The translations under genes were made by a program, and so were the position numbers. From positions 15,403-79,402 of the forward strand of contig CACYIC010000001.1 in assembly GCA_902774325.1 (NCBI GenBank): 64,000 nt of DNA, in the 5' to 3' direction. The notes beneath the pieces are model-generated. The model worked only from the letters and a program-made list of their open reading frames with translations. It was not told where the DNA came from and did no database searches. This document shows, piece by piece, positions 8,133 through 25,901 of this stretch. Each line of letters starts with the position of its first letter. Position 1 is the stretch's first letter. Source of the DNA: an uncultured Ruminococcus sp. GTDB lineage: Bacteria; Bacillota; Clostridia; Oscillospirales; Acutalibacteraceae.

Positions 8133-9590
8133 ATGGGAACGATTTCAAAAATCCATGAAATGCTCGTGAGCGGGGAGTGCTCCTGCGCCGAGCTTACCAA
8201 GAGCTATCTTGATGAAATAGAAAAAGCAAACCCCGAGCTTAACGCCTACGTCAACGTCACTCCCGACGAGGCTATGAGGGCGGCTCAGGCTGTCGATAAG
8301 AAGCTCGCCGCAGGCGAGGAGATCGGAATGCTCGAGGGCGTTCCGATGACCCTCAAGGACAACCTCTCGACCAAGGGCATAGAAACCACCTGCTGCTCAA
8401 AGATACTCACGGGCTACAAGCCGATCTTTGACGCGACGGTGTGGGAGATATTGAAATCCCGGAACGCCGTTATGCTCGGCAAAACAAATATGGACGAGTT
8501 CGCGATGGGCTCCTCCTGCGAGACCTCGTACTTCGGCGGCGCGATGAACCCCGTGAATACAAATCACGTCGCGGGCGGCTCGTCGGGCGGCGTTTCGAGC
8601 GCGGTCGGCGGCAATATCGCGGCTTACGGTCTGGGCTCGGACACCGGCGGCTCTATCCGCCAGCCCGCCTCCTTCTGCGGAGTCGTGGGCTTGAAGCCCA
8701 CCTACGGCTCGGTATCGCGCTACGGTCTGATCGCCTACGCCAGCTCGCTCGACCAGATCGGTCCGATCACAAAGAGCGTTGAGGATGCTTCTATCGTTTT
8801 CGACGCGATCTCCGCTCCCGACAGACGCGACTCCACCTGCAAGGGAAACGTCGGGGGAGCTACCTATCCGACGCTTGACAACGACATCAAGGGCATGAAG
8901 ATCGGAATCGCCCGCGAATATCTCGACGGCGTCCGCGACGACGTAAGGGAGGCTGTGCTCGAGGCGGCAAAGGTCTATGAAGCCCTCGGCGCCGAGATCG
9001 TTTACTTCGATCTGCCGATCCTGAAATTCGCGCTTCCCGTTTACTATATCATCGCCTGCGCGGAGGCTTCCTCGAACCTCGGGCGCTACGACGGAATCCG
9101 CTACGGCTACAAGACCGCGCATTACAACGGCACTCACGATATGATCTGCCGCACCAGGAGCGAGGGCTTCGGCGAGGAGGTCAAGCGCAGGATACTGCTC
9201 GGAACCTACGTCCTCTCGGCGGGCTACTACGACGCCTATTACAAGAAGGCGCAGAACCTGAGGGGAACCATCGTCAAGGCGTTCGACAGGGCTTTTGAGC
9301 AGTGCGACGTTATTCTGGCGCCCACCGTTCCCATGACGGCGTTTGAAAAGGGACACGCTGTCAGCGACCCGATCGAAACCTATCTCACCGATATCTGCAC
9401 CGTTCCCGTAAATATCGCGGGACTTCCGGGCGTTTCCGTGCCCTGCGGCTTCAACTCGAAGGGTATGCCCATCGGTATGCAGCTGATCGGCAAGAGCTTC
9501 GGCGAGGCTCAGATACTCAACGCCGCCTATAAATACCAGCAGGCGGCTCCCGATAAATTTATGGATACAAAGTGGGGTGTCAGGCTGTGA
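8133..9590 (+). CDS. gatA: Asp/Glu-tRNA amidotransferase subunit A
   Basis: Amidase signature KDN, GKTNMDEFAMGSS, GGSSGG, GSDTGGSIRQPA. Confidence 0.95.
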   Translation: MGTISKIHEMLVSGECSCAELTKSYLDEIEKANPELNAYVNVTPDEAMRAAQAVDKKLAAGEEIGMLEGVPMTLKDNLSTKGIETTCCSKILTGYKPIFDATVWEILKSRNAVMLGKTNMDEFAMGSSCETSYFGGAMNPVNTNHVAGGSSGGVSSAVGGNIAAYGLGSDTGGSIRQPASFCGVVGLKPTYGSVSRYGLIAYASSLDQIGPITKSVEDASIVFDAISAPDRRDSTCKGNVGGATYPTLDNDIKGMKIGIAREYLDGVRDDVREAVLEAAKVYEALGAEIVYFDLPILKFALPVYYIIACAEASSNLGRYDGIRYGYKTAHYNGTHDMICRTRSEGFGEEVKRRILLGTYVLSAGYYDAYYKKAQNLRGTIVKAFDRAFEQCDVILAPTVPMTAFEKGHAVSDPIETYLTDICTVPVNIAGLPGVSVPCGFNSKGMPIGMQLIGKSFGEAQILNAAYKYQQAAPDKFMDTKWGVRL

Positions 9591-10999
9591 AATACGAATT
9601 GGTTTCGGGTTTTGAAACCCATATCGAGCTTTCCACAAGGACAAAGATATTCTGCAACTGCACAACGCAGTTCGGCGGCGAGCCGAATACTCACTGCTGT
9701 CCCGTCTGCATCGGTCTGCCGGGCACGCTTCCCGTGCTCAACCGCGAGGTCGTGCGCTACGCGATCAAGGCGGGTCTTGCGGTTCACGGCGAGATAGCGG
9801 AGATCGCCAAAATGGACAGAAAGAACTATTGCTATCCCGATCTTTCAAAGGCGTACCAGATCAGCCAGCTCTACGCTCCGCTGATAATCGGAGGATATGT
9901 CGAGCTTTCAAACGGCAGAAGGATCCGCCTGCACCATATCCACATCGAGGAGGACGCCGGAAAGCTGATCCACCAGCACGGCGACACCTACGTTGATTAC
10001 AACCGGGGCGGAGTCCCGCTCATCGAGATCGTTTCCGAGCCGGATATCCGCTCGATCGACGAGGCGAAGGAATACGTCGAAAGGCTCCAGCAGGTAATGC
10101 GCTATATCGGGATCTCCGACTGCAAGATGCAGGAGGGCTCGATGCGCTGCGACGTAAATATTTCGGTTCGTCCCGAGGGAAGCGAGAAATTCGGCACCCG
10201 CACCGAAATAAAGAACATGAACTCCATCGCGAATATCGCGAAGGCTATGGAATATGAGTACGACCGCCAGGTCGATCTGATCGAGAGCGGCGGAAAGGTG
10301 ATCCAGGAGACCCTGCGCTACGACGACGCGACCGGCACGACCTCTCCGATGCGCAGCAAGGAGGACGCTCACGACTACCGCTACTTCCGCGACCCCGACC
10401 TTGTGACGATCAACGTTCCGCGCGAGGAGGTCGAAAGGCTCAGAGCCGAGCTGCCCGAGCTGCCGATGGACAAGTGCAGGCGCTACGTCAACGAGCTCGA
10501 GATCCCTGAAAAGGACGCTCTGCTGCTCACGAAGTACAGAAGGATAAGCGAGTATTTCGACGAGGCGATAAAGGGTGTCAAGTCGCCAAAGACGGTTTCC
10601 AACTTCATTATCGGGCAGATGTTCCGCCGCACCGAGACCGAGAGCGACAAGGAGCTTTTTGAGCTCGCGACAAGTCCTGCTCAGCTCAACGAGCTTGTAA
10701 GGCTGCTCGACAGCGGAAAGATCCGCAATAATCTAGCAAAGTCCACGCTCGAAAAAATGCTCGACAGCGGAAAGGGCGCACTTGAGTTCATCAGCGAGAG
10801 CGATATGGGCGGCGTGGATGAAAACGCTCTGCTCGAGCTTTGCAGGAAAGCGATAGAGGGCAACCCCAAGGCGGTCGAGGACTACAAAAACGGCAAGGAA
10901 AAGGCGATAAAATCCCTTGTCGGAAACGTCATGAAGAACAGCCGCGGCAAGGCTGACGCGATGGCTGCCGAGGCTAAGATCAAGGAATTGATAGGATAA
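9587..10999 (+). CDS. gatB: Asp/Glu-tRNA amidotransferase subunit B (GTG start overlapping the gatA stop)
   Basis: GFETHIEL, CPVCIGLPG, HIEEDAGK, DYNRGGVPLIEIVSEPD, EIKNMNS, DYRYFRDPDL. Confidence 0.95.
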   Translation: MKYELVSGFETHIELSTRTKIFCNCTTQFGGEPNTHCCPVCIGLPGTLPVLNREVVRYAIKAGLAVHGEIAEIAKMDRKNYCYPDLSKAYQISQLYAPLIIGGYVELSNGRRIRLHHIHIEEDAGKLIHQHGDTYVDYNRGGVPLIEIVSEPDIRSIDEAKEYVERLQQVMRYIGISDCKMQEGSMRCDVNISVRPEGSEKFGTRTEIKNMNSIANIAKAMEYEYDRQVDLIESGGKVIQETLRYDDATGTTSPMRSKEDAHDYRYFRDPDLVTINVPREEVERLRAELPELPMDKCRRYVNELEIPEKDALLLTKYRRISEYFDEAIKGVKSPKTVSNFIIGQMFRRTETESDKELFELATSPAQLNELVRLLDSGKIRNNLAKSTLEKMLDSGKGALEFISESDMGGVDENALLELCRKAIEGNPKAVEDYKNGKEKAIKSLVGNVMKNSRGKADAMAAEAKIKELIG

Positions 11000-11019
11000 T
11001 CCAAATCCGAAAAAAAGAT

Positions 11020-11095
11020 ACGGCGTCCGGTTCGTTGGATCGGACGCCGTTGCTGCTGAAAACAGGGGATCGGTTCTTTTTGAGCCGATCCCCTG
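11020..11095. terminator. Two strong hairpins between convergent gatB and trpB2
   Basis: ACGGCGTCCG/CGGACGCCGT (11020-11050) and CAGGGGATCGG/CCGATCCCCTG (11063-11095). Confidence 0.75.
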
Positions 11096-11140
11096 AAATA
11101 ATTTATTTTTTGAAATCACAACGTTTTGGATGATGGCGAT

Positions 11141-11197
11141 GCTTTTTGTTCGGACATCATAAGGCAGCGGACAGAACGATTTTTGACCCGCCGTCGC
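11141..11197. repeat. Decayed solo copy of the 110-bp tandem-array unit
   Basis: Ungapped 41/57 match to the array core at about 35398-35454, including an exact 17-mer TTTTGACCCGCCGTCGC. Confidence 0.65.
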
Positions 11198-12574
11198 TTA
11201 TAAGTCTATCTTGGGCAGACCCGCGAAGCCCTTTTCAAGATCCTCGTCGGTGGGGATATAGTCGGACATCTCTCCGTCGTTGTACTTCTGATAGGCGACC
11301 ATATCGAAGTAGCCCGTGCCGGTAAGACCGAAGAGGATGGTTTTCTCCTCGCCTGTTTCCTTGCACTTGAGAGCCTCGTCGATAGCGGCGCGGATCGCGT
11401 GGCTGGACTCGGGAGCGGGAAGGATGCCCTCAACTCTCGCGAACTGCTCGGCGGCGGCGAATACCGAAGTCTGCTCAACGCTGACAGCCTCCATCAGACC
11501 GTCGTGATAGAGCTGGGAGAGGGTGCTGCTCATGCCGTGATAGCGCAGACCGCCCGCGTGGTTGGCGGAGGGAATGAAGCCTGAGCCGAGGGTGTACATC
11601 TTGGCGAGCGGGCAGACCATGCCGGTGTCGCAGAAGTCGTATGCGAACTTTCCTCTGGTGAAGCTGGGGCAGGAAGCGGGCTCGACGGCGATGATGCGGT
11701 AATCAGCCTCGCCTCTGAGCTTCTCGCCCATGAAGGGAGCGATGAGTCCGCCGAGGTTAGAGCCGCCGCCGGCGCAGCCGATGATAACGTCGGGCTTGAC
11801 GCCGAGCTTGTCGAACGCAGCCTTAGCCTCAAGACCGATAACGCTCTGGTGCAGGAGCACCTGATTGAGCACGCTGCCGAGAACATAGCGGTAGCCCTCG
11901 GAGTGAGTAGCGACCTCGACAGCCTCGGAGATAGCGCAGCCGAGGCTTCCGGTGGTGCCGGGGTGAGCCTCAAGGATCCTCTTGCCGATCTCGGTAGTGG
12001 TCGAAGGGGAGGGGGTAACGTCCGCGCCGTAAACGCGCATTACCTCGCGGCGGAAGGGCTTCTGCTCGTAGGAGACCTTTACCATGTAAACCTTGCAGTC
12101 AAGTCCGAAGTAGGAGCAAGCCATTGAGAGAGCTGTGCCCCACTGACCCGCGCCGGTCTCGGTGGTAACTCCCTTGAGTCCCTGCTTCTTGGCGTAATAT
12201 GCCTGGGCGATAGCGGAGTTGAGCTTGTGGCTGCCGCTGGTGTTGTTGCCCTCAAACTTGTAGTAGATCTTGGCGGGGGTGTCGAGCGCCTTCTCGAGGA
12301 AGTAGGCGCGGACAAGGGGAGAGGGACGGTACATCTTGTAGAAGTCGAGGATCTCTTCCGGGATGTCGATGTAAGCGTCGGTGTTGTTGAGCTCCTGGGC
12401 GATAAGCTCCTCGCAGAATACGGGAGCAAGCTCCTCGGCGGTCATGGGCTCGAGGGTTCCGGGATTGAGCAGCGGAGCGGGCTTGTTTTTCATATCCGCT
12501 CTCATATTGTACCATTTTGTGGGGATCTCGTTTTCATCAAGATAAGTTTTGTAAGGAATTTTGTTTTCTGACAT
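11198..12574 (-). CDS. trpB2: TrpB2-type (TrpB-like PLP-dependent) tryptophan synthase beta chain
   Basis: YYKFEGNNTSGSHKLNSA (PLP lysine), ETGAGQWG, GGGSNLGG, HAGGLRYHG, PAPESSHA; ~458 aa as typical of TrpB2. Confidence 0.9.
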   Translation of the reverse strand: MSENKIPYKTYLDENEIPTKWYNMRADMKNKPAPLLNPGTLEPMTAEELAPVFCEELIAQELNNTDAYIDIPEEILDFYKMYRPSPLVRAYFLEKALDTPAKIYYKFEGNNTSGSHKLNSAIAQAYYAKKQGLKGVTTETGAGQWGTALSMACSYFGLDCKVYMVKVSYEQKPFRREVMRVYGADVTPSPSTTTEIGKRILEAHPGTTGSLGCAISEAVEVATHSEGYRYVLGSVLNQVLLHQSVIGLEAKAAFDKLGVKPDVIIGCAGGGSNLGGLIAPFMGEKLRGEADYRIIAVEPASCPSFTRGKFAYDFCDTGMVCPLAKMYTLGSGFIPSANHAGGLRYHGMSSTLSQLYHDGLMEAVSVEQTSVFAAAEQFARVEGILPAPESSHAIRAAIDEALKCKETGEEKTILFGLTGTGYFDMVAYQKYNDGEMSDYIPTDEDLEKGFAGLPKIDL

Positions 12575-14402: not shown

Positions 14403-15677
14403 ATGAAAGACAGAAGATTTGATTTATTATCCGCGATCGTTTCGTTCGCGGCGGCGCTTATCGTGCTGGTGCCCATGGTCGCGCTTAGTTATTTTTCGGA
14501 GCCTCTGGGCTGGTTCGTTCAGGCGCTCTTTGTGGGACTCACGCTTCCTGTCGCGGCTCTGGCGGGCTTCGGAGCGGTTCATCTGCTCTGCCGTTTAAGG
14601 CGCGGCATGAAAATCGAGCTGCCCGGTTTGTTCACGGGCGGCGGTGCGATCTTCCTCGCGCTGCTGTTCCTCGCGGGAGCCGTCGGACAGATCGTTTATT
14701 CGCTTCATCTTGAGCAGAGGGTCACTTACAGGGAGGAGACCGTCCAAACTACGACTCCTGTCGTCAACGGTCACGCGCCCTGCGACATCGCTCTGCTGAT
14801 CGATTCCTCCGGCTCGATGATCGACAAGACGGATATCGTCGTAAGAGCGTCGGACGCGTTTGTTGACAGCCTTCCCGACTCCGCCGATCTCGCTCTTGGC
14901 ATTTTTACCAGCAAGGTGACTCCGAGCTGGGGACTCAGGAAGATGGACGCCGCGGGCAAGGAGGAAACCAAGAAGAACCTCCGCGAGGACGGAGAGGGCG
15001 CGACTACCGAGATCGCCGAGGCGCTCGAGTGGGCTTACGACACCCTCAGCGCGGCGGACGACGGGACGCGCAATCAGTTTGTGGTCATAGTCACCGACGG
15101 CGTGTCGCCCCTTCATCAGAGCGTAATCGAAAAATACGACAGGACTAAATGCGATATAAAGGTTTATTCCATCCTCACCGTTGACGAGCTTTATGATTCG
15201 TGGCTGGGCGAAAGCGTAACTACAAAGAGGTTCGTCGATTTTGTCGACAGCACCGGAGGCTTCAATTCGGAGGTCAGGACGGGAGACGACGAGGAGGCGG
15301 CGATCGCGGAGCTCACAAAGGTGTTCAATAACATCTCGTCGGAGAATATCACCCCGACAGACAATGTCAAGAGGGTTCGCGAGGTGAGCACCGGACTCGG
15401 CTTTGCCAACGGAACCATCCTTCACGACGATTTCAGCGTCAGGATCTTCGGAATAATCATGCGCTTTGTATTCTTCTTCATCTTCGCGGGGCTTATGCAG
15501 CTCTATTATTTCAGGGATTTCCGCTTGTCAAAGCTCCTTATCTGCCTGGGAGAATCGGCTGTCGCGACGGCGCTCGTCACCCTCGGCGGTATCCTTGGCG
15601 CGGCGATGATCTCGATCATCGCGCTGGCGCTGTGCCTGTTCGCGCTGTTCGCGGTGCTTGAGATCCCGGAATACTGA
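14403..15677 (+). CDS. Membrane protein with von Willebrand A domain
   Basis: 3 N-terminal TMs, MIDAS LLIDSSGSM...T...VIVTDG, 3-4 C-terminal TMs. Confidence 0.85.
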   Translation: MKDRRFDLLSAIVSFAAALIVLVPMVALSYFSEPLGWFVQALFVGLTLPVAALAGFGAVHLLCRLRRGMKIELPGLFTGGGAIFLALLFLAGAVGQIVYSLHLEQRVTYREETVQTTTPVVNGHAPCDIALLIDSSGSMIDKTDIVVRASDAFVDSLPDSADLALGIFTSKVTPSWGLRKMDAAGKEETKKNLREDGEGATTEIAEALEWAYDTLSAADDGTRNQFVVIVTDGVSPLHQSVIEKYDRTKCDIKVYSILTVDELYDSWLGESVTTKRFVDFVDSTGGFNSEVRTGDDEEAAIAELTKVFNNISSENITPTDNVKRVREVSTGLGFANGTILHDDFSVRIFGIIMRFVFFFIFAGLMQLYYFRDFRLSKLLICLGESAVATALVTLGGILGAAMISIIALALCLFALFAVLEIPEY

Positions 15678-20666: not shown

Positions 20667-20716
20667 AAAGCCGGGCGGAAGGGCAAGCGTACCGCAAGCT
20701 CCTTCCGCCCGGCTTT
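20667..20716 (+). terminator. Terminator after the CotH-dockerin gene
   Basis: Perfect 16-bp stem AAAGCCGGGCGGAAGG / CCTTCCGCCCGGCTTT. Confidence 0.75.
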
Positions 20717-20767
20717 TGCCGCCCTCCGCGGCAAACGATCGGTTATTGAATGAAGCATACAAGACAA

Positions 20768-20809
20768 ATAAAAAGAGGCTGCCACGGGATCGTGTTCCGT
20801 GACAGCCTC
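20768..20809 (-). terminator. Terminator of the GTPase-GTPase-ARH operon
   Basis: GAGGCTGCCACGGGA / TCCGTGACAGCCTC stem with an A-run on its left (T-run on the minus strand). Confidence 0.65.
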
Positions 20810-20890: not shown

Positions 20891-21973
20891 TTACTGATTT
20901 GTCAGGTTATAGAGCTCGTCCGCGACGTCTATGAGCAGTGGGTAAAGCTCGAGCTTGGTCTTCCATTTTTCCTCGATCGCGTCGAGCCCGAGCATGGCGC
21001 CGAGGATATTTCCGGTGATCGCGCCCGTGGAATCGCTGTCGCCCTTGTGGTTGACCGAGGCGATCACGGCGGCGGAAAAGTCGTCGGGATGGCGCAGACA
21101 GCAGTAAAGCGAGATGTAGAGCGCCTCGTCGCCGACCCAGCCCTCGCCGAGACGGTGGATATTATCGAGATCCGCTCTGTCGTTTTCGGAAAGCTCTATC
21201 GCGAGGTCGATAAAATCGGTGAGCTCTCTGATGTTTTTGTCGTCGGCGAAGATCCTTCCGACGGTATCGCGGGCTTCGGTCACGATCTCCTTTAGGGTCA
21301 GACCGCGCTCGTTGTAAACGCATTTGCGGACAACGTCGGCGAGCACCGCCGCAGGCATATAGCCCAGCGAATGGCAGTGAGTGTACGCCGCGGCCTCCGC
21401 CGCGAGCAGATCGGTTTCCTCGACGCTCATTCCTCTGATCAGTCCGACGGGCGCGACGCGCATTATTCCGCCGCAGCCCTTGCTGTTGTTGAGCTTTGAT
21501 TTGAGATAGCTTTCCGCGCCTAAGTCTCCGCGCTCTCTTCTTGAGCGGAGAGCGGAGAGGCAGGTTATACCCGGCGCTCTTCGCTTGTATAGCTCGGGAA
21601 CGCTCATGAGCTTTGGCAGGGAATAGGCGTTGTCGAAATTGCCGAGATAACCTTCCGCCTCGTCGAAATAGACCTCCTGAGTGAGAAGCCATTCCATGTA
21701 AGCCTCGGCGACAGCCCTCATCGGGGAATTGTCCTGAGGCTTTTTAAAATAGTCGATCAGACCGCCCGCGGTGAATATCGTCATCTGGGTGTCGTCGGAG
21801 ATTATAGCCTCTCCCTTGGGGCGGCTGAGGCTGTACTCCGTGATGCCGTCCTTGCCGTATTCTCCGAAAATGGTCTTTTCGGAAACGAATTCCACCGCGT
21901 AGCCGAGGGCGTCGCCCGCAGCTCCGCCGACAAGACATCCTCTGAATTTGTTTTTGACGCTGTTGTTTGTCAT
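20891..21973 (-). CDS. ADP-ribosylglycohydrolase (DraG/ARH family)
   Basis: GGAAGDALG..VEF, SDDTQMT, NSKGCGGIMRVAP, GDSDSTGAITGNILGA. Confidence 0.92.
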   Translation of the reverse strand: MTNNSVKNKFRGCLVGGAAGDALGYAVEFVSEKTIFGEYGKDGITEYSLSRPKGEAIISDDTQMTIFTAGGLIDYFKKPQDNSPMRAVAEAYMEWLLTQEVYFDEAEGYLGNFDNAYSLPKLMSVPELYKRRAPGITCLSALRSRRERGDLGAESYLKSKLNNSKGCGGIMRVAPVGLIRGMSVEETDLLAAEAAAYTHCHSLGYMPAAVLADVVRKCVYNERGLTLKEIVTEARDTVGRIFADDKNIRELTDFIDLAIELSENDRADLDNIHRLGEGWVGDEALYISLYCCLRHPDDFSAAVIASVNHKGDSDSTGAITGNILGAMLGLDAIEEKWKTKLELYPLLIDVADELYNLTNQ

Positions 21974-22020
21974 TTTTATTCCCCTCTTTCAAACCTCAGT
22001 TATTGCTTTTTGAATAGGTG

Positions 22021-23718
22021 TCAAAGGCGCTCCTTGTGGATCTCCTCGATCAGAGCGCGGCAGTCCCTGAGGATCCCCTCAAGCTCCTTCGCCTTTTCGC
22101 TTTTTGCTGTGCTCGCGGCGCGGATAGCCTCAAGCTTGCTGTCGAGCTCCGCGATATACTGCCCGAGGGCGGCGTCAAGCTGCGCCTCGAGGAAGCTTCT
22201 TCCGAAGTCGGTCAGCTCTCCTGCGAAGCCGTTGAACTCCGAGCGGATGTCCTGCTGATATTTTTTGAGCTCCATGCTTCGCGCCTGAGCGTCAAAGTCG
22301 TCCTTGATCTGCATAGCCGCGTCGAGAAATACCGCCGCCACGCTCATCGCGACGCCGATCTTGTTCACCCTGCGGGCGAGCTTCTCGGCTTGCCAGGGCT
22401 TGAATTTGTAATTGAAGGCGTTGCCCAGGTCGAGCACCGCCTGACGGACGTCGCTGCCCTTGTAGCCCGCGAGCACCAGCGCGTTTGTCGCCTCGGACGC
22501 CGCCGCGCCCTCCAGCAGCATTTCGCTCATGCTTTTCATTATCCCGCCGGCGCCCAGAAGCAGCTCGCGGATGCTGTCGGGCAGCTCGCCGTAGTGACCC
22601 TCAAGGCGGCTTTTGAGCTTCATTGTAAAGGGCGACTGTTCGATATCGGCTATGCCGCGCTCGACCCTCGCGAGTCCCTCAGCCAGCATCCGCTGCGCCT
22701 GCGCCTGACAGTCGTTGGCGGCGGCGTTGGTTTCGTCTATTTTTTCGTCGAGCTGTTTTTCGAGGGCTTCCCTGTCGCGCGCCTCCGCTATTATCCTTGC
22801 GGCGTCGAGTCCGGTCTCGCGGATCTTGCAGGCGGTGTTATAGAAAACGTTCTGCACGTCGCGGCGCAGGCTGTTCCTCGCGTCCGCGAGAAGGTAGCGC
22901 TGCTGCAGATAGTTTTCCTCAAGGGCGCCGACGTCGCTGTTCTCAAAGCTTCTTTCAAGTCCTCCGAGCGCCTTCTGGAGCGCGTCCTCCGCGATATACA
23001 GCTCGGTCGTCAGCCGCGAGGCGAGACCCTTTTCCTCAACAAAGCGGTTCAGAGCCTCGATGAAGGCGTCGCAGCCGCTGCGCTCGATCAGCCTTTGCGC
23101 GCGCTCGGGAGATGAAGCCGCTTTTTCCATCCCGTCGAGGCAGCTCTTGGCGTCGAGGAAGCACAGGCGCATATCCTCGGGCGTATAGGGCGCGATGACC
23201 TTCGCGATATCGCCCCTGATGACCTCCCGCTGGTGAGGCGTATTGCCTTCGGCGGTCTTGTTCATTTTATTTACGACGAGCAGCATCTCGCCCGCCTTGT
23301 CGTTTTCGATAGCCAGCTTGCGGAAGTGCGCGGCGATGTTCGCGTCGAACATCTGACTTGTCACGACAAATACCAGCACGTCGGCGGCGGCGATCGCCTT
23401 GTAGGAGATCTCGTCGTGGTCGGGGCGCTGCTCGGTGTGGATGCCCGGCGTGTCGGTGATGAGCATACCGTTCCATTCGTAGGTCGCGGTCTGCTCGGTG
23501 GTGATGCCCGCTCCGACCGCAATATCGTTTCTGCCCGTGAGCATTCGGATGATGGTGGATTTGCCGGCGCTGTACTGCCCGACAAATACCAGATTAATCG
23601 GCTTGTCCTCGGGCGACCGCGCCGAGTAGGGCACGCCGGTGCCGCGCAGAGCTTCCTCGGCTCGGCTTTGGATTTCCTGTTTTCTGCGGGAAAACTCCGC
23701 GATTTTTATCTCTCGCAT
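22021..23718 (-). CDS. Dynamin-like GTPase, LeoA-like
   Basis: G1 GQYSAGKS, G2 ITT, G3 DTPG, G4 NKM; long helical stalk; C-terminal KFKPW plus hydrophobic paddle recalled from the LeoA/HP0731 family. Confidence 0.75.
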   Translation of the reverse strand: MREIKIAEFSRRKQEIQSRAEEALRGTGVPYSARSPEDKPINLVFVGQYSAGKSTIIRMLTGRNDIAVGAGITTEQTATYEWNGMLITDTPGIHTEQRPDHDEISYKAIAAADVLVFVVTSQMFDANIAAHFRKLAIENDKAGEMLLVVNKMNKTAEGNTPHQREVIRGDIAKVIAPYTPEDMRLCFLDAKSCLDGMEKAASSPERAQRLIERSGCDAFIEALNRFVEEKGLASRLTTELYIAEDALQKALGGLERSFENSDVGALEENYLQQRYLLADARNSLRRDVQNVFYNTACKIRETGLDAARIIAEARDREALEKQLDEKIDETNAAANDCQAQAQRMLAEGLARVERGIADIEQSPFTMKLKSRLEGHYGELPDSIRELLLGAGGIMKSMSEMLLEGAAASEATNALVLAGYKGSDVRQAVLDLGNAFNYKFKPWQAEKLARRVNKIGVAMSVAAVFLDAAMQIKDDFDAQARSMELKKYQQDIRSEFNGFAGELTDFGRSFLEAQLDAALGQYIAELDSKLEAIRAASTAKSEKAKELEGILRDCRALIEEIHKERL

Positions 23719-23748
23719 ATTGCTGCCTTTCTGTAAATATCGAAGGTT

Positions 23749-25842
23749 TTATTTTGTTATGATGATCTCGCACAGCTGCTGCGCGAGCTTTGCTTTGTTG
23801 ACTGCCGAGGGAGAGCTTTTGTCTGTGAGCAGTTCAGCCGAGGGGACGCCGCCGCTGAGCCTTTTGAGCCTGACGGCGTTTTCTCCCAGGAGCCTTTTTA
23901 TCAGCTCCTCGGAGGAGCAGCCTCCGGTCACGGCGCGTACGGTGACTCCCAGAATGGACGCGAGCTTTTTCAGAGCGTCGGAGGGAAGCGAAGCGCCCGG
24001 TACAAGTATCAGGCAGCATTCGGCTCCCGGGATAACGCCGACGTCCTCTATCCTGAGCGAGAGCTCCGGACAGCCCTGCAGCGCCAGAGCCTCGCGCACC
24101 AGTCCTCGGTTCAGCTCTCTGAGGCTGCGGGAGAGCTTTTGCGCCAGCGTATATTGAGTGAGCGAAAGCGCGGATACGACCCCGCCGATCTCGCCCGTTT
24201 CGGCTTCGAGGGAGCGGAGATTGCCGAAGAGCTCCCTGAGGCTTTTTTCGATAGAATCTCTGAGCCTGTCGCAGTTGGCGTTGACGTTGCGGCGCAGCTT
24301 TTCCTCGAGCTCGCCCTTTGCCGACGCCTCGAGGCTGTCTTTAGTCGGCAGGAATCTGTCCGCGAGCATCCTAACGCCGCCTATCCCGAAGGAAACGAGG
24401 GTGAAGATTATACCCAGCGGCGGGACGATCGGCAGCAGGATAGTTCCCGCGACCGCGAAGCCGCCGCCCAACAGGATGGAAGCCCAGTCGACGGTCCTCT
24501 TCACGTCGAGGATCCTCTTGCCCCTGAGCGTCTCCTCTGAGGCGAAGCTGACGGCGAATTTCAGCTCGGAGGAAAGCGAGCGCGTGATCTCGCGGATCTC
24601 TCCGTTCGCCTGCGCGGTGAGGTCGTCGATCAGCTCTTTGGCGCGGGCGTCGAGCCCTTGGCTCTTTATAAAAGCCTTCCACGCGTCGGCGCTGTTTTTG
24701 TCCGAGATATGCTCCGCGGCAAAGTCGCCCGCGCCCGAATACAGGGTGCTGCGGCAGTCGGCGATGAAGCTTTCCGCACGCTCATAGGCGCTTTTTTCAA
24801 ATTCGGTGATCCAGGCGCACAGCTTCCTTTGCTTGTCGGCGATGATCTCAGCCTGCAGGCTGTTTGCGAGGCACTGCTCGAGCAGCAGCCCGGCGACGTT
24901 CTCCACAGGGCGGCTGACCGCGTCGATATAAGCCTTCGCGCGGTAAAACTCGCCGTTTTCGGCGATGATGCCCGCGAGCGCGTCGGTGAGAGAGTCGATA
25001 CCGCTCGCCCTTTCGAGCAGCCGGCGCTTTTCGGGATCGTCGGTCTGCTGCGCCAGAAAAGCCGAGCGCAGATGGGTATAGACAAACGGCACGCCGTTCC
25101 AGTCCTGACCCGCGAGAGCGCCGTACTTTACAAACTGCGCGCGGATCTCTCCGAGCCGTTCGATGTCAAAGGCGTCGTCGATCTCCTCGGTGATGAAGGC
25201 GGGATCGTCGTTTATATCGACGCTCGCCTTGACGTTTATGACGCAGAGCACGGGCTTGCCCAGCTCGCGGACCGTGCGGAACCACTCCGCCTCCTGCGAC
25301 TGAACGCCATCGTCCGACATCAGAAAGAGTATCAGGTCGGCGGCCTTTGCCGCCTTGTACGCCTCGTCCTCGTCCTTCTGCCCCTCGTAGGCGCCGATAC
25401 CGGGCACGTCGGTGATGCACAGCCCGTTCCATTCGTAGGAGCGGATGTCGCGCGTGGTGCGCTGAGAGCCGTTTCCGATCGACTTTCCGTCTCCGTGGGT
25501 CAGTATCTCCATGAGGGTGGATTTTCCGGTCATCGTCCTTCCGAATAGGACGACCGTGAATTTTGACAGGTTGTCCCTGAGAGCCTTCAGCTCCTCGCGC
25601 GATTTGACGGAAACCTTGTCAAAGGTTTTGGATATCTGTTTCAATTGGGAGGAGAGCTGCTTGTTGAGCTCGGAGAGCTTCGCCTTCTTGCCGCCGAGCT
25701 CCTTCACCGAAGCCTCGGTGCGGTCGCGCGCCTCGCCGAGCACCTTTTCTATTTCTCCGAGCCTTATATCGGCGATCTCGTATCCCTTTGCCGCGCCTCT
25801 GCGGCAGCGGATCAGGGCTGACGAAAGATTGTAGGTTCGCAT
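23749..25842 (-). CDS. Dynamin-like GTPase, LeoBC-like, with hydrophobic paddle and extra C-terminal region
   Basis: N-terminal coiled coil; G1 GRTMTGKS, QRTTRD, G3 DVPG, INVK; hydrophobic hairpin WASILLGGGFAVAGTILLPIVPPLGIIFTLVSFGIGG. Confidence 0.75.
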   Translation of the reverse strand: MRTYNLSSALIRCRRGAAKGYEIADIRLGEIEKVLGEARDRTEASVKELGGKKAKLSELNKQLSSQLKQISKTFDKVSVKSREELKALRDNLSKFTVVLFGRTMTGKSTLMEILTHGDGKSIGNGSQRTTRDIRSYEWNGLCITDVPGIGAYEGQKDEDEAYKAAKAADLILFLMSDDGVQSQEAEWFRTVRELGKPVLCVINVKASVDINDDPAFITEEIDDAFDIERLGEIRAQFVKYGALAGQDWNGVPFVYTHLRSAFLAQQTDDPEKRRLLERASGIDSLTDALAGIIAENGEFYRAKAYIDAVSRPVENVAGLLLEQCLANSLQAEIIADKQRKLCAWITEFEKSAYERAESFIADCRSTLYSGAGDFAAEHISDKNSADAWKAFIKSQGLDARAKELIDDLTAQANGEIREITRSLSSELKFAVSFASEETLRGKRILDVKRTVDWASILLGGGFAVAGTILLPIVPPLGIIFTLVSFGIGGVRMLADRFLPTKDSLEASAKGELEEKLRRNVNANCDRLRDSIEKSLRELFGNLRSLEAETGEIGGVVSALSLTQYTLAQKLSRSLRELNRGLVREALALQGCPELSLRIEDVGVIPGAECCLILVPGASLPSDALKKLASILGVTVRAVTGGCSSEELIKRLLGENAVRLKRLSGGVPSAELLTDKSSPSAVNKAKLAQQLCEIIITK

Positions 25843-25872
25843 GATTCAACCTCCGGATTGCTTTCTCTGTTT

Positions 25873-25901
25873 ATTATAGCAATTTTATAATGAGGTTTCA
25901 A
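25873..25901 (-). promoter_or_regulatory. Sigma-A promoter of the GTPase-GTPase-ARH operon
   Basis: TTGAAA-17 bp-TATAAT. Confidence 0.8.

Follow-up and report, generated by a model that had tools for sequence, protein, structure and literature searches.

The 64,000-nucleotide stretch analyzed here, termed the window (positions 15,403 to 79,402 of contig CACYIC010000001.1, assembly GCA_902774325.1, from an uncultured Ruminococcus sp.), contains two genes for dynamin-like GTPases followed on the same strand by a gene for an ADP-ribosylglycohydrolase (ARH), and this arrangement raises the question of whether the ARH is a third component of an anti-phage system or a gene that lies next to one. 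The favored answer, with a probability of roughly three in four, is that the GTPases form a canonical two-gene Eleos system in one uncultured cattle-gut Clostridia species and that the ARH is a neighbor standing outside the Eleos mechanism. The answer is built on computed properties of the locus, namely its anatomy, the families of its proteins, the accessory status of the pair and the lack of conserved linkage to the ARH. The ARH is read as a neighbor rather than a third component because its adjacency to the pair is limited to one species.

Eleos (formerly Dynamins) is a two-gene system composed of LeoBC and LeoA, the name being taken from bioRxiv 10.1101/2022.12.12.520048. The pair from Bacillus vietnamensis protects Bacillus subtilis against the jumbo phages AR9 and PBS1, and P-loop mutations in either protein abolish this defence (Millman et al. 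2022). The first gene of the window locus (minus strand, 23749-25842) encodes P0001, a LeoBC-type dynamin-like GTPase of 697 amino acids that matches the PADLOC LeoBC model over residues 37-632 (E 1.7e-93, 312.8 bits), and the second (minus strand, 22021-23718) encodes P0002, a LeoA-type GTPase of 565 amino acids that matches the PADLOC LeoA model over residues 27-562 (E 3.9e-107, 357.6 bits). The Pfam families MMR_HSR1 and Dynamin_N are found in both proteins, with the dynamin-like helical domain DLP_helical (PF18709) present in P0002. Both profile hidden Markov models (HMMs) are matched near full length by genes that are adjacent and co-oriented with LeoBC first, and the P-loop is intact in each. 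Because the GTPases match the PADLOC LeoBC and LeoA models, their assignment as an Eleos ("Dynamins") system, already proposed in a first-pass annotation of the window, is strongly supported at the level of sequence.

The P-loop (G1) motif is GRTMTGKS at residue 101 of LeoBC and GQYSAGKS at residue 47 of LeoA, and the G3 motifs are DVPG at 145 and DTPG at 89, respectively. The G4 motif is canonical in LeoA (NKMN at 150) and non-canonical in LeoBC, where NVKA at residue 203 stands in place of NKxD, so that of the G1, G3 and G4 motifs first assigned to both proteins only the G4 of LeoBC does not hold. Given NVKA at this position, the guanine specificity of LeoBC may be relaxed. Hydropathy shows a strong double hydrophobic segment (hairpin) at ~451-495 in LeoBC and a weakly hydrophobic segment at ~451-472 in LeoA, directly after the KFKPW motif. 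This motif had also been noticed on first reading of the second GTPase and is located at residue 438, with K-P-W invariant in 15 homologues. The match of P0002 to the LeoA structure from enterotoxigenic Escherichia coli (4AUR) is weak and covers the helical region 433-533 (phmmer E 3.9e-4), and its score against NCBIfam NF041922 (LeoA/HP0731) is 62.3 bits, far under the curated cut-off of 325, and for these reasons P0002 is placed, by the PADLOC model, as a distant LeoA-type protein outside the narrower NF041922 subfamily.

LeoA homologues are abundant, and the linkage of the ARH to the pair was surveyed in 79 loci (one genome per species) together with the 3 closest metagenomic relatives, making 82 LeoBC-LeoA loci besides the window. 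The open reading frames (ORFs) of the survey, with 707 kb of flanks, were searched with P0003, the ARH of the window, and then with a profile of seven ARH sequences (hmmsearch). LeoBC lies co-oriented and directly upstream of LeoA in 78/82 loci, and the other four are without a strong co-oriented upstream LeoBC match, at least three of them ending at a contig edge. An adjacent co-oriented ARH downstream of LeoA is found in none of the 67 informative loci, these being the loci with at least 1.2 kb downstream of LeoA. The three closest metagenomic LeoA relatives (62-64%) contain the pair and no ARH, with the pair followed by an unannotated opposite-strand gene, a dockerin protein or a DUF4230 gene. 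In the genome loci at 61-62% the pair is likewise present without an ARH. Metagenome contigs scanned with LeoA yielded no closer relative, only one distant locus at 33% identity. The survey is able to detect third genes, as illustrated by the recovery of a conserved ORF in 20/20 loci of one clade (positive control). The first-pass annotation had suggested a possible dedicated role for the ARH as third component, a suggestion that depends on the ARH being linked to the pair in other genomes; the neighborhoods show no such linkage (0/67 loci with an adjacent ARH) and close ARH homologues occur in unrelated contexts, so the suggestion is not sustained. Among the loci and matches listed, the LeoBC-LeoA-ARH trio appears only in the source species.

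A looser association is seen in 2/82 loci (L069 and L109, both confirmed as PF03747), where an ARH occurs within 7 kb of the pair. In both loci it belongs to a separate unit that converges on the pair from the opposite strand, ~2 kb downstream. The ARH background in the order to which the window belongs is 115 genes in 150 genomes, or ~0.38 per Mb, giving an expected count over 707 kb of 0.27, or of 1.06 at a four-fold density in other taxa, and a probability of 2 or more of 0.03-0.29. The occurrence of ARH genes near Eleos would be a co-location of the island type, at most weak. In L109, an Anaerobiospirillum metagenome-assembled genome, the ARH and an AAA-ATPase_like/PD-(D/E)XK gene form a two-gene unit (8932-11793) converging on the Eleos pair.

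The ARH gene (minus strand, 20891-21973) encodes P0003, a protein of 360 amino acids with the ARH/DraG fold that matches Pfam PF03747 over its full length (E 5e-61, 207.3 bits against a gathering cut-off of 26.2), and Pfam identifies no extra domain beyond this one. The motifs GDALG..VEF, SDDT (59-62) and GDSDSTG (311-317) align with the metal site of the DraG structure 3G9D, with SDDT at 59 and DSDS at 312 pairing with TDDT and DADT of DraG. Scores are under the equivalog cut-offs for both DraG (TIGR02662, 74.6 versus 337.05) and Tri1 (NF041672, 53.4 versus 490), and P0003 has no match among the PADLOC models. The family is very large, with at least 8000 homologues of P0003 in the search, many of them, among the matches listed, fused to macro, PARG-like (PF10021), NADAR or HD domains. 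The sole near-identical ARH among these matches (98%) comes from the source species, where three other assemblies repeat the trio together with its flanks. The best of the matches from other species, at 61%, is encoded behind a Tpt1/KptA gene and a gene for a Schlafen-type helicase. Homologues at 56-58% are located beside unknown genes near an integrase, beside a HIRAN gene, and beside an Apyc1-like gene and MazE. Homologues of 43-50% identity (tblastn) are carried at non-syntenic sites by 6-7 same-genus genomes without Leo genes, where they adjoin UvrA/DUF1846/MscS or TraG/GNAT/phage lysozyme. Because close homologues turn up in settings unrelated to one another, among them same-genus genomes devoid of Leo genes, the ARH itself is interpreted as mobile, patchily distributed and able to work in the absence of dynamins, and it is most likely a stand-alone, predicted Mg-dependent ADP-ribose hydrolase riding the Eleos transcript.

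The neighborhoods of these relatives are conflict-flavored, and a conflict role for the ARH as an orphan antitoxin or immunity enzyme, as against general ADP-ribose turnover, is plausible for this reason. Taken as an account of the whole locus, the ARH would be an independent conflict gene, comparable to Tri1 or the ARH-fold DarG3, acting against ADP-ribosylating toxins of phages or rivals, clustered with Eleos in the way that is common among defence genes, under a shared promoter and with a separate mechanism, and this is considered unlikely. The DarHTG-like setting of the 61% homologue agrees with it, as do the Apyc1-like, MazE, HIRAN, integrase, TraG and phage-lysozyme genes close to other homologues, the patchiness of the ARH within the genus, and the presence of an ARH ~2 kb from the pair in two other Eleos loci, in L109 together with the AAA-ATPase/PD-(D/E)XK gene. 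It is opposed by the absence of a PADLOC match to the ARH and of any other defence gene in the flanks of the window, by an enrichment near Eleos that is not significant at realistic ARH densities, and by the many family members fused to macro/PARG-like domains, which suit general ADP-ribose turnover.

The three minus-strand ORFs are co-oriented and lie at exactly the coordinates first assigned, with gaps of 30 bp between LeoBC and LeoA and 47 bp between LeoA and the ARH. A promoter-like site of the sigma-70 type (TTGAAA-17-TG-TATAAT; minus strand, 25873-25901) upstream of LeoBC has 11/12 consensus matches and an extended -10 TG and is the sole strong one on that strand, the call being a consensus match only. 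The ARH is followed by an intrinsic terminator (minus strand, 20766-20809) in which a 13-bp GC-rich stem (20809-20775) precedes the U-tract UUUUUAUUU, and its folding energy of -26.5 kcal/mol (z -5.57) is reached by 0/200 shuffles. Both intergenic gaps are unstructured, folding no better than shuffles (z -0.46 and -0.19). The LeoA-ARH gap contains neither a terminator nor a promoter-like site, and a search for a promoter-like site ahead of the ARH found none. A ribosome-binding site (RBS)-like GAGGGG is placed ahead of the ARH start and GGAGG ahead of the LeoBC start. The first-pass annotation had described the promoter, both gaps, the terminator, and an RBS without a hairpin in the 47-bp gap, and in each of these respects its description is confirmed. 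Because there is one promoter-like site, one terminator, unstructured gaps and no internal promoter-like site, the layout judged from consensus matches is that of a single operon, and the ARH is probably co-transcribed with the Leo pair in the source species. Metatranscriptomes contain exact-match fragments (150-350 nt) for all three genes at a low level, for which DNA carry-over is possible and none of which crosses a junction.

Several points weigh against the ARH being no more than a neighbor. The operon-like anatomy, as read from one strand, an unstructured 47-bp gap with an RBS, one promoter and one terminator, is real. The trio is retained with the same flanks in all sampled strains and appears fixed in the species. 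The locus is tiled, most pieces at ~99% identity, by contigs of four metagenomes, each from a different study, that cross the CotH-ARH, ARH-LeoA and LeoBC-DUF815 junctions, and no credible strain variant (the pair without the ARH, the ARH without the pair, or an empty site) is found in four DNA metagenomes. The two Eleos loci with an ARH nearby slightly exceed the lowest background estimate (0.27). Proteins of the ARH fold act in defence, an example being the DarG3 antitoxin in the DarHTG (helicase, DarT and DarG3) anti-phage operon (PMC13069673). To judge from identities of 55-61% outside the species versus 43-50% within the genus, the ARH is not a vertical orthologue of the same-genus ARHs, and because the outside-species matches exceed the same-genus ones it may have arrived together with the pair from an unsampled donor. 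Fixation within a species is a matter of common descent and cannot serve as independent evidence of function.

Apparent deletion joints in the metagenomes were rejected, their flanks being at most 37 nt and derived from paralogues of other organisms. Within the 5' part of the ARH gene (21811-21851), a same-species contig from DNA run X2 has 11 listed substitutions in ~40 bp, the remaining locus being ~99% identical, and this cluster may be a small recombination tract.

In a three-gene variant, the ARH would be a lineage-specific functional add-on that removes inhibitory ADP-ribose from the dynamins or reverses phage ADP-ribosylation of the Leo proteins or membrane targets. The tight operon-like layout with its one promoter and one terminator, the fixation of the trio in all sampled strains, the exact-match metatranscriptome fragments for all three genes and the intact active-site motifs of the ARH are all consistent with such a variant, which is nevertheless judged very unlikely, as the linkage is not conserved in the 82 other Eleos loci, nearest relatives included, the ARH has no extra domain for docking onto dynamins, its close homologues are found without Leo genes in many contexts, the conservation within one species reflects shared ancestry only, and the locus contains no ADP-ribosyltransferase (ART). 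Recruitment of the ARH into the Eleos transcript, where it might keep the system on by clearing ADP-ribose that a phage has attached to the dynamins or their membrane targets, is likewise improbable. If true, it would give Eleos its first accessory enzyme and a first mechanistic handle. Were the ARH a true partner, ADP-ribosylation would be a signal or a counter-defence on bacterial dynamins and a testable biochemical step, but the comparative evidence argues against this.

The source genome comprises 2.1 Mb in 74 contigs at 52.8% GC, and the locus is present in bovine gut and rumen metagenomes. No true LeoA homologue is found in 60 related genomes, 36 of them from the same genus, the matches being to the GTPase domain only (E 1e-12 or weaker). 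Since the pair is absent from 60/60 related genomes, its status as accessory and horizontally gained is strongly supported by the distribution of its homologues. The DUF815-PBP gene pair on the LeoBC side is conserved in the genus and synteny breaks exactly at LeoBC, in agreement with the accessory insertion suggested on first reading. There is no clean empty site in same-genus genomes; the other neighbor of DUF815-PBP differs in each relative, and the CotH-dockerin paralogues are located elsewhere. Searches for a tRNA gene, an integrase, and flanking direct or inverted repeats as island borders found none. The Leo genes have a GC content of 0.60-0.61 compared with a genome ORF mean of 0.549 (z 1.6-1.7), so that the GC richness first ascribed to the GTPase genes stands as a mild signal, with typical codon usage. 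Their third-position GC (GC3) is at the 91st-94th percentile (z ~1.1-1.2) and that of the ARH is average (z 0.4), all inside the genome range, and the codon usage of these genes is not atypical. The evidence for horizontal gain is the phyletic pattern and not composition, since GC and GC3 are mildly raised and codon usage is unremarkable. Composition and codon usage were also considered as a sign of co-transfer and are not decisive, with the Leo genes mildly GC3-rich and the ARH average.

The idea that the pair is no immune system here but a housekeeping dynamin for membrane repair or fusion, comparable to B. subtilis DynA, with an unrelated ARH, can point to the demonstration of an anti-phage role for only one homologous system (B. 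vietnamensis, mechanism unknown), to the lack of defence neighbors in the window and to low-level rumen metatranscriptome expression without a known phage trigger, but it is highly improbable given that the gene is missing from 36/36 same-genus genomes, that the family is sporadic across phyla and elsewhere adjoins WYL regulators, helicase-nuclease genes and recombinases, and that the matches to defence-system HMMs are strong.

The flank on the ARH side contains a convergent CotH-dockerin gene followed by AraC, MatE and VWA genes, and that on the LeoBC side contains a divergent DUF815 AAA ATPase, a PBP/PG-binding protein and a beta-lactamase-fold protein. PADLOC returns no matches on ten flanking genes, and the locus is therefore not in a defence island. 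There is no ART domain in the locus or flanks and no helicase at the locus, and no DraT, nitrogenase or type VI secretion system (T6SS) effector partner is found near the ARH. A perfect 16-bp inverted repeat with an 18-nt spacer is located at 20667-20716, just past the CotH-dockerin gene, and is probably the terminator of that gene, which would therefore make two convergent units with separate terminators ~60 bp apart.

For the two-gene Eleos system with an ARH neighbor, the activity against phages, the action at the membrane, the shared transcript and the substrate of the ARH are inferred as follows. The LeoBC-LeoA pair would have been gained horizontally by one species. By analogy with the tested B. 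vietnamensis system, an intact P-loop would be required in each GTPase, and both would act at the membrane, with LeoBC making contact through its hydrophobic hairpin and LeoA through a helical paddle. Assembly of LeoBC and LeoA at the membrane, driven by GTP, would block certain phages, as homology to that system suggests. The ARH would be read from the Eleos promoter simply since nothing halts transcription ahead of it, and as a catalytically competent, predicted Mg-dependent hydrolase of a very large mobile Clostridia family it would have its own task, the removal of ADP-ribose from a protein, nucleic acid or small molecule.

The genes downstream of LeoA in other loci are heterogeneous and include WYL-WCX regulators, an SF1 helicase with RNase H, an AAA ATPase, a molybdopterin oxidoreductase, DUF3592 and unknowns. 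The WYL-WCX (HTH) regulators lie directly downstream of LeoA in two unrelated loci (L103:5570-6577 and L117:8538-9488), and regulators of the WYL type are often seen beside defence systems. A DUF4230 gene adjoins the pair in two of the three closest relatives (L038:3161-3892 and L040:3010-3762); in one it precedes the pair on the same strand, and in the other it follows the pair on the opposite strand. Two Eleos pairs are combined as tandem LeoBC-LeoA pairs in L063, and L091 contains a second LeoA on the opposite strand ~5 kb away. The loci L066-L085 (Saccharofermentans/Ruminococcaceae clade) have an ORF of ~196 (~190-200) amino acids that is co-oriented and lies a few tens of bases downstream of LeoA in 20/20 loci (for example L068:8726-9319 and L070:7312-7899). 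This ORF has no Pfam match and no homologue in the genome of the window, the flanks beyond it vary, and it is a candidate for a genuine third gene of that Eleos subclade. The cassette containing the 61% ARH homologue (L122:2510-6533) is composed of co-oriented genes for Tpt1/KptA (ADP-ribosyltransferase fold), a Schlafen group-3 helicase and the ARH, with MazG-like and Smr genes after it, and resembles the published helicase-DarT-ARH layout of DarHTG with a different transferase. The conserved third gene of L066-L085 and the Tpt1-helicase-ARH cassette may be better leads than the trio of the window, which serves as a worked case that a gene order resembling an operon, when confined to one species, cannot count as evidence for a multi-gene system.

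Compared with the DarTG and DarHTG systems (PMC13069673), the window ARH has its nearest outside-species homologue in a comparable layout of helicase, ART-fold protein and ARH, whereas the window ARH itself adjoins LeoA and the convergent CotH-dockerin gene, with no ART toxin or helicase at the locus. With the DraG/ARH3/Tri1 family (PF03747) it shares a full-length match and the conserved motifs of the di-metal site and differs from DraG and Tri1 in its scores under the equivalog cut-offs and in having no DraT, nitrogenase or T6SS effector partner nearby. The LeoABC proteins of enterotoxigenic E. coli H10407 (Michie et al. 2014; 4AUR) belong to the same dynamin-like fold family and have the KFKPW region conserved, but are very distant (E 3.9e-4), and LeoB and LeoC are fused in the window as one protein of 697 amino acids. 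Set beside Eleos, the window pair shares only ~36% identity with L115, the nearest of the sampled Bacillus loci, has no defence island around it, and has an ARH following LeoA on the same apparent transcript, a feature not seen in the 82 other loci. It agrees with Eleos in the adjacent and co-oriented order of LeoBC then LeoA, the full-length PADLOC matches, the intact P-loops and the sporadic accessory distribution, and what remains is a well-delimited, divergent example of this known system from an uncultured rumen bacterium with a species-specific ARH neighbor.

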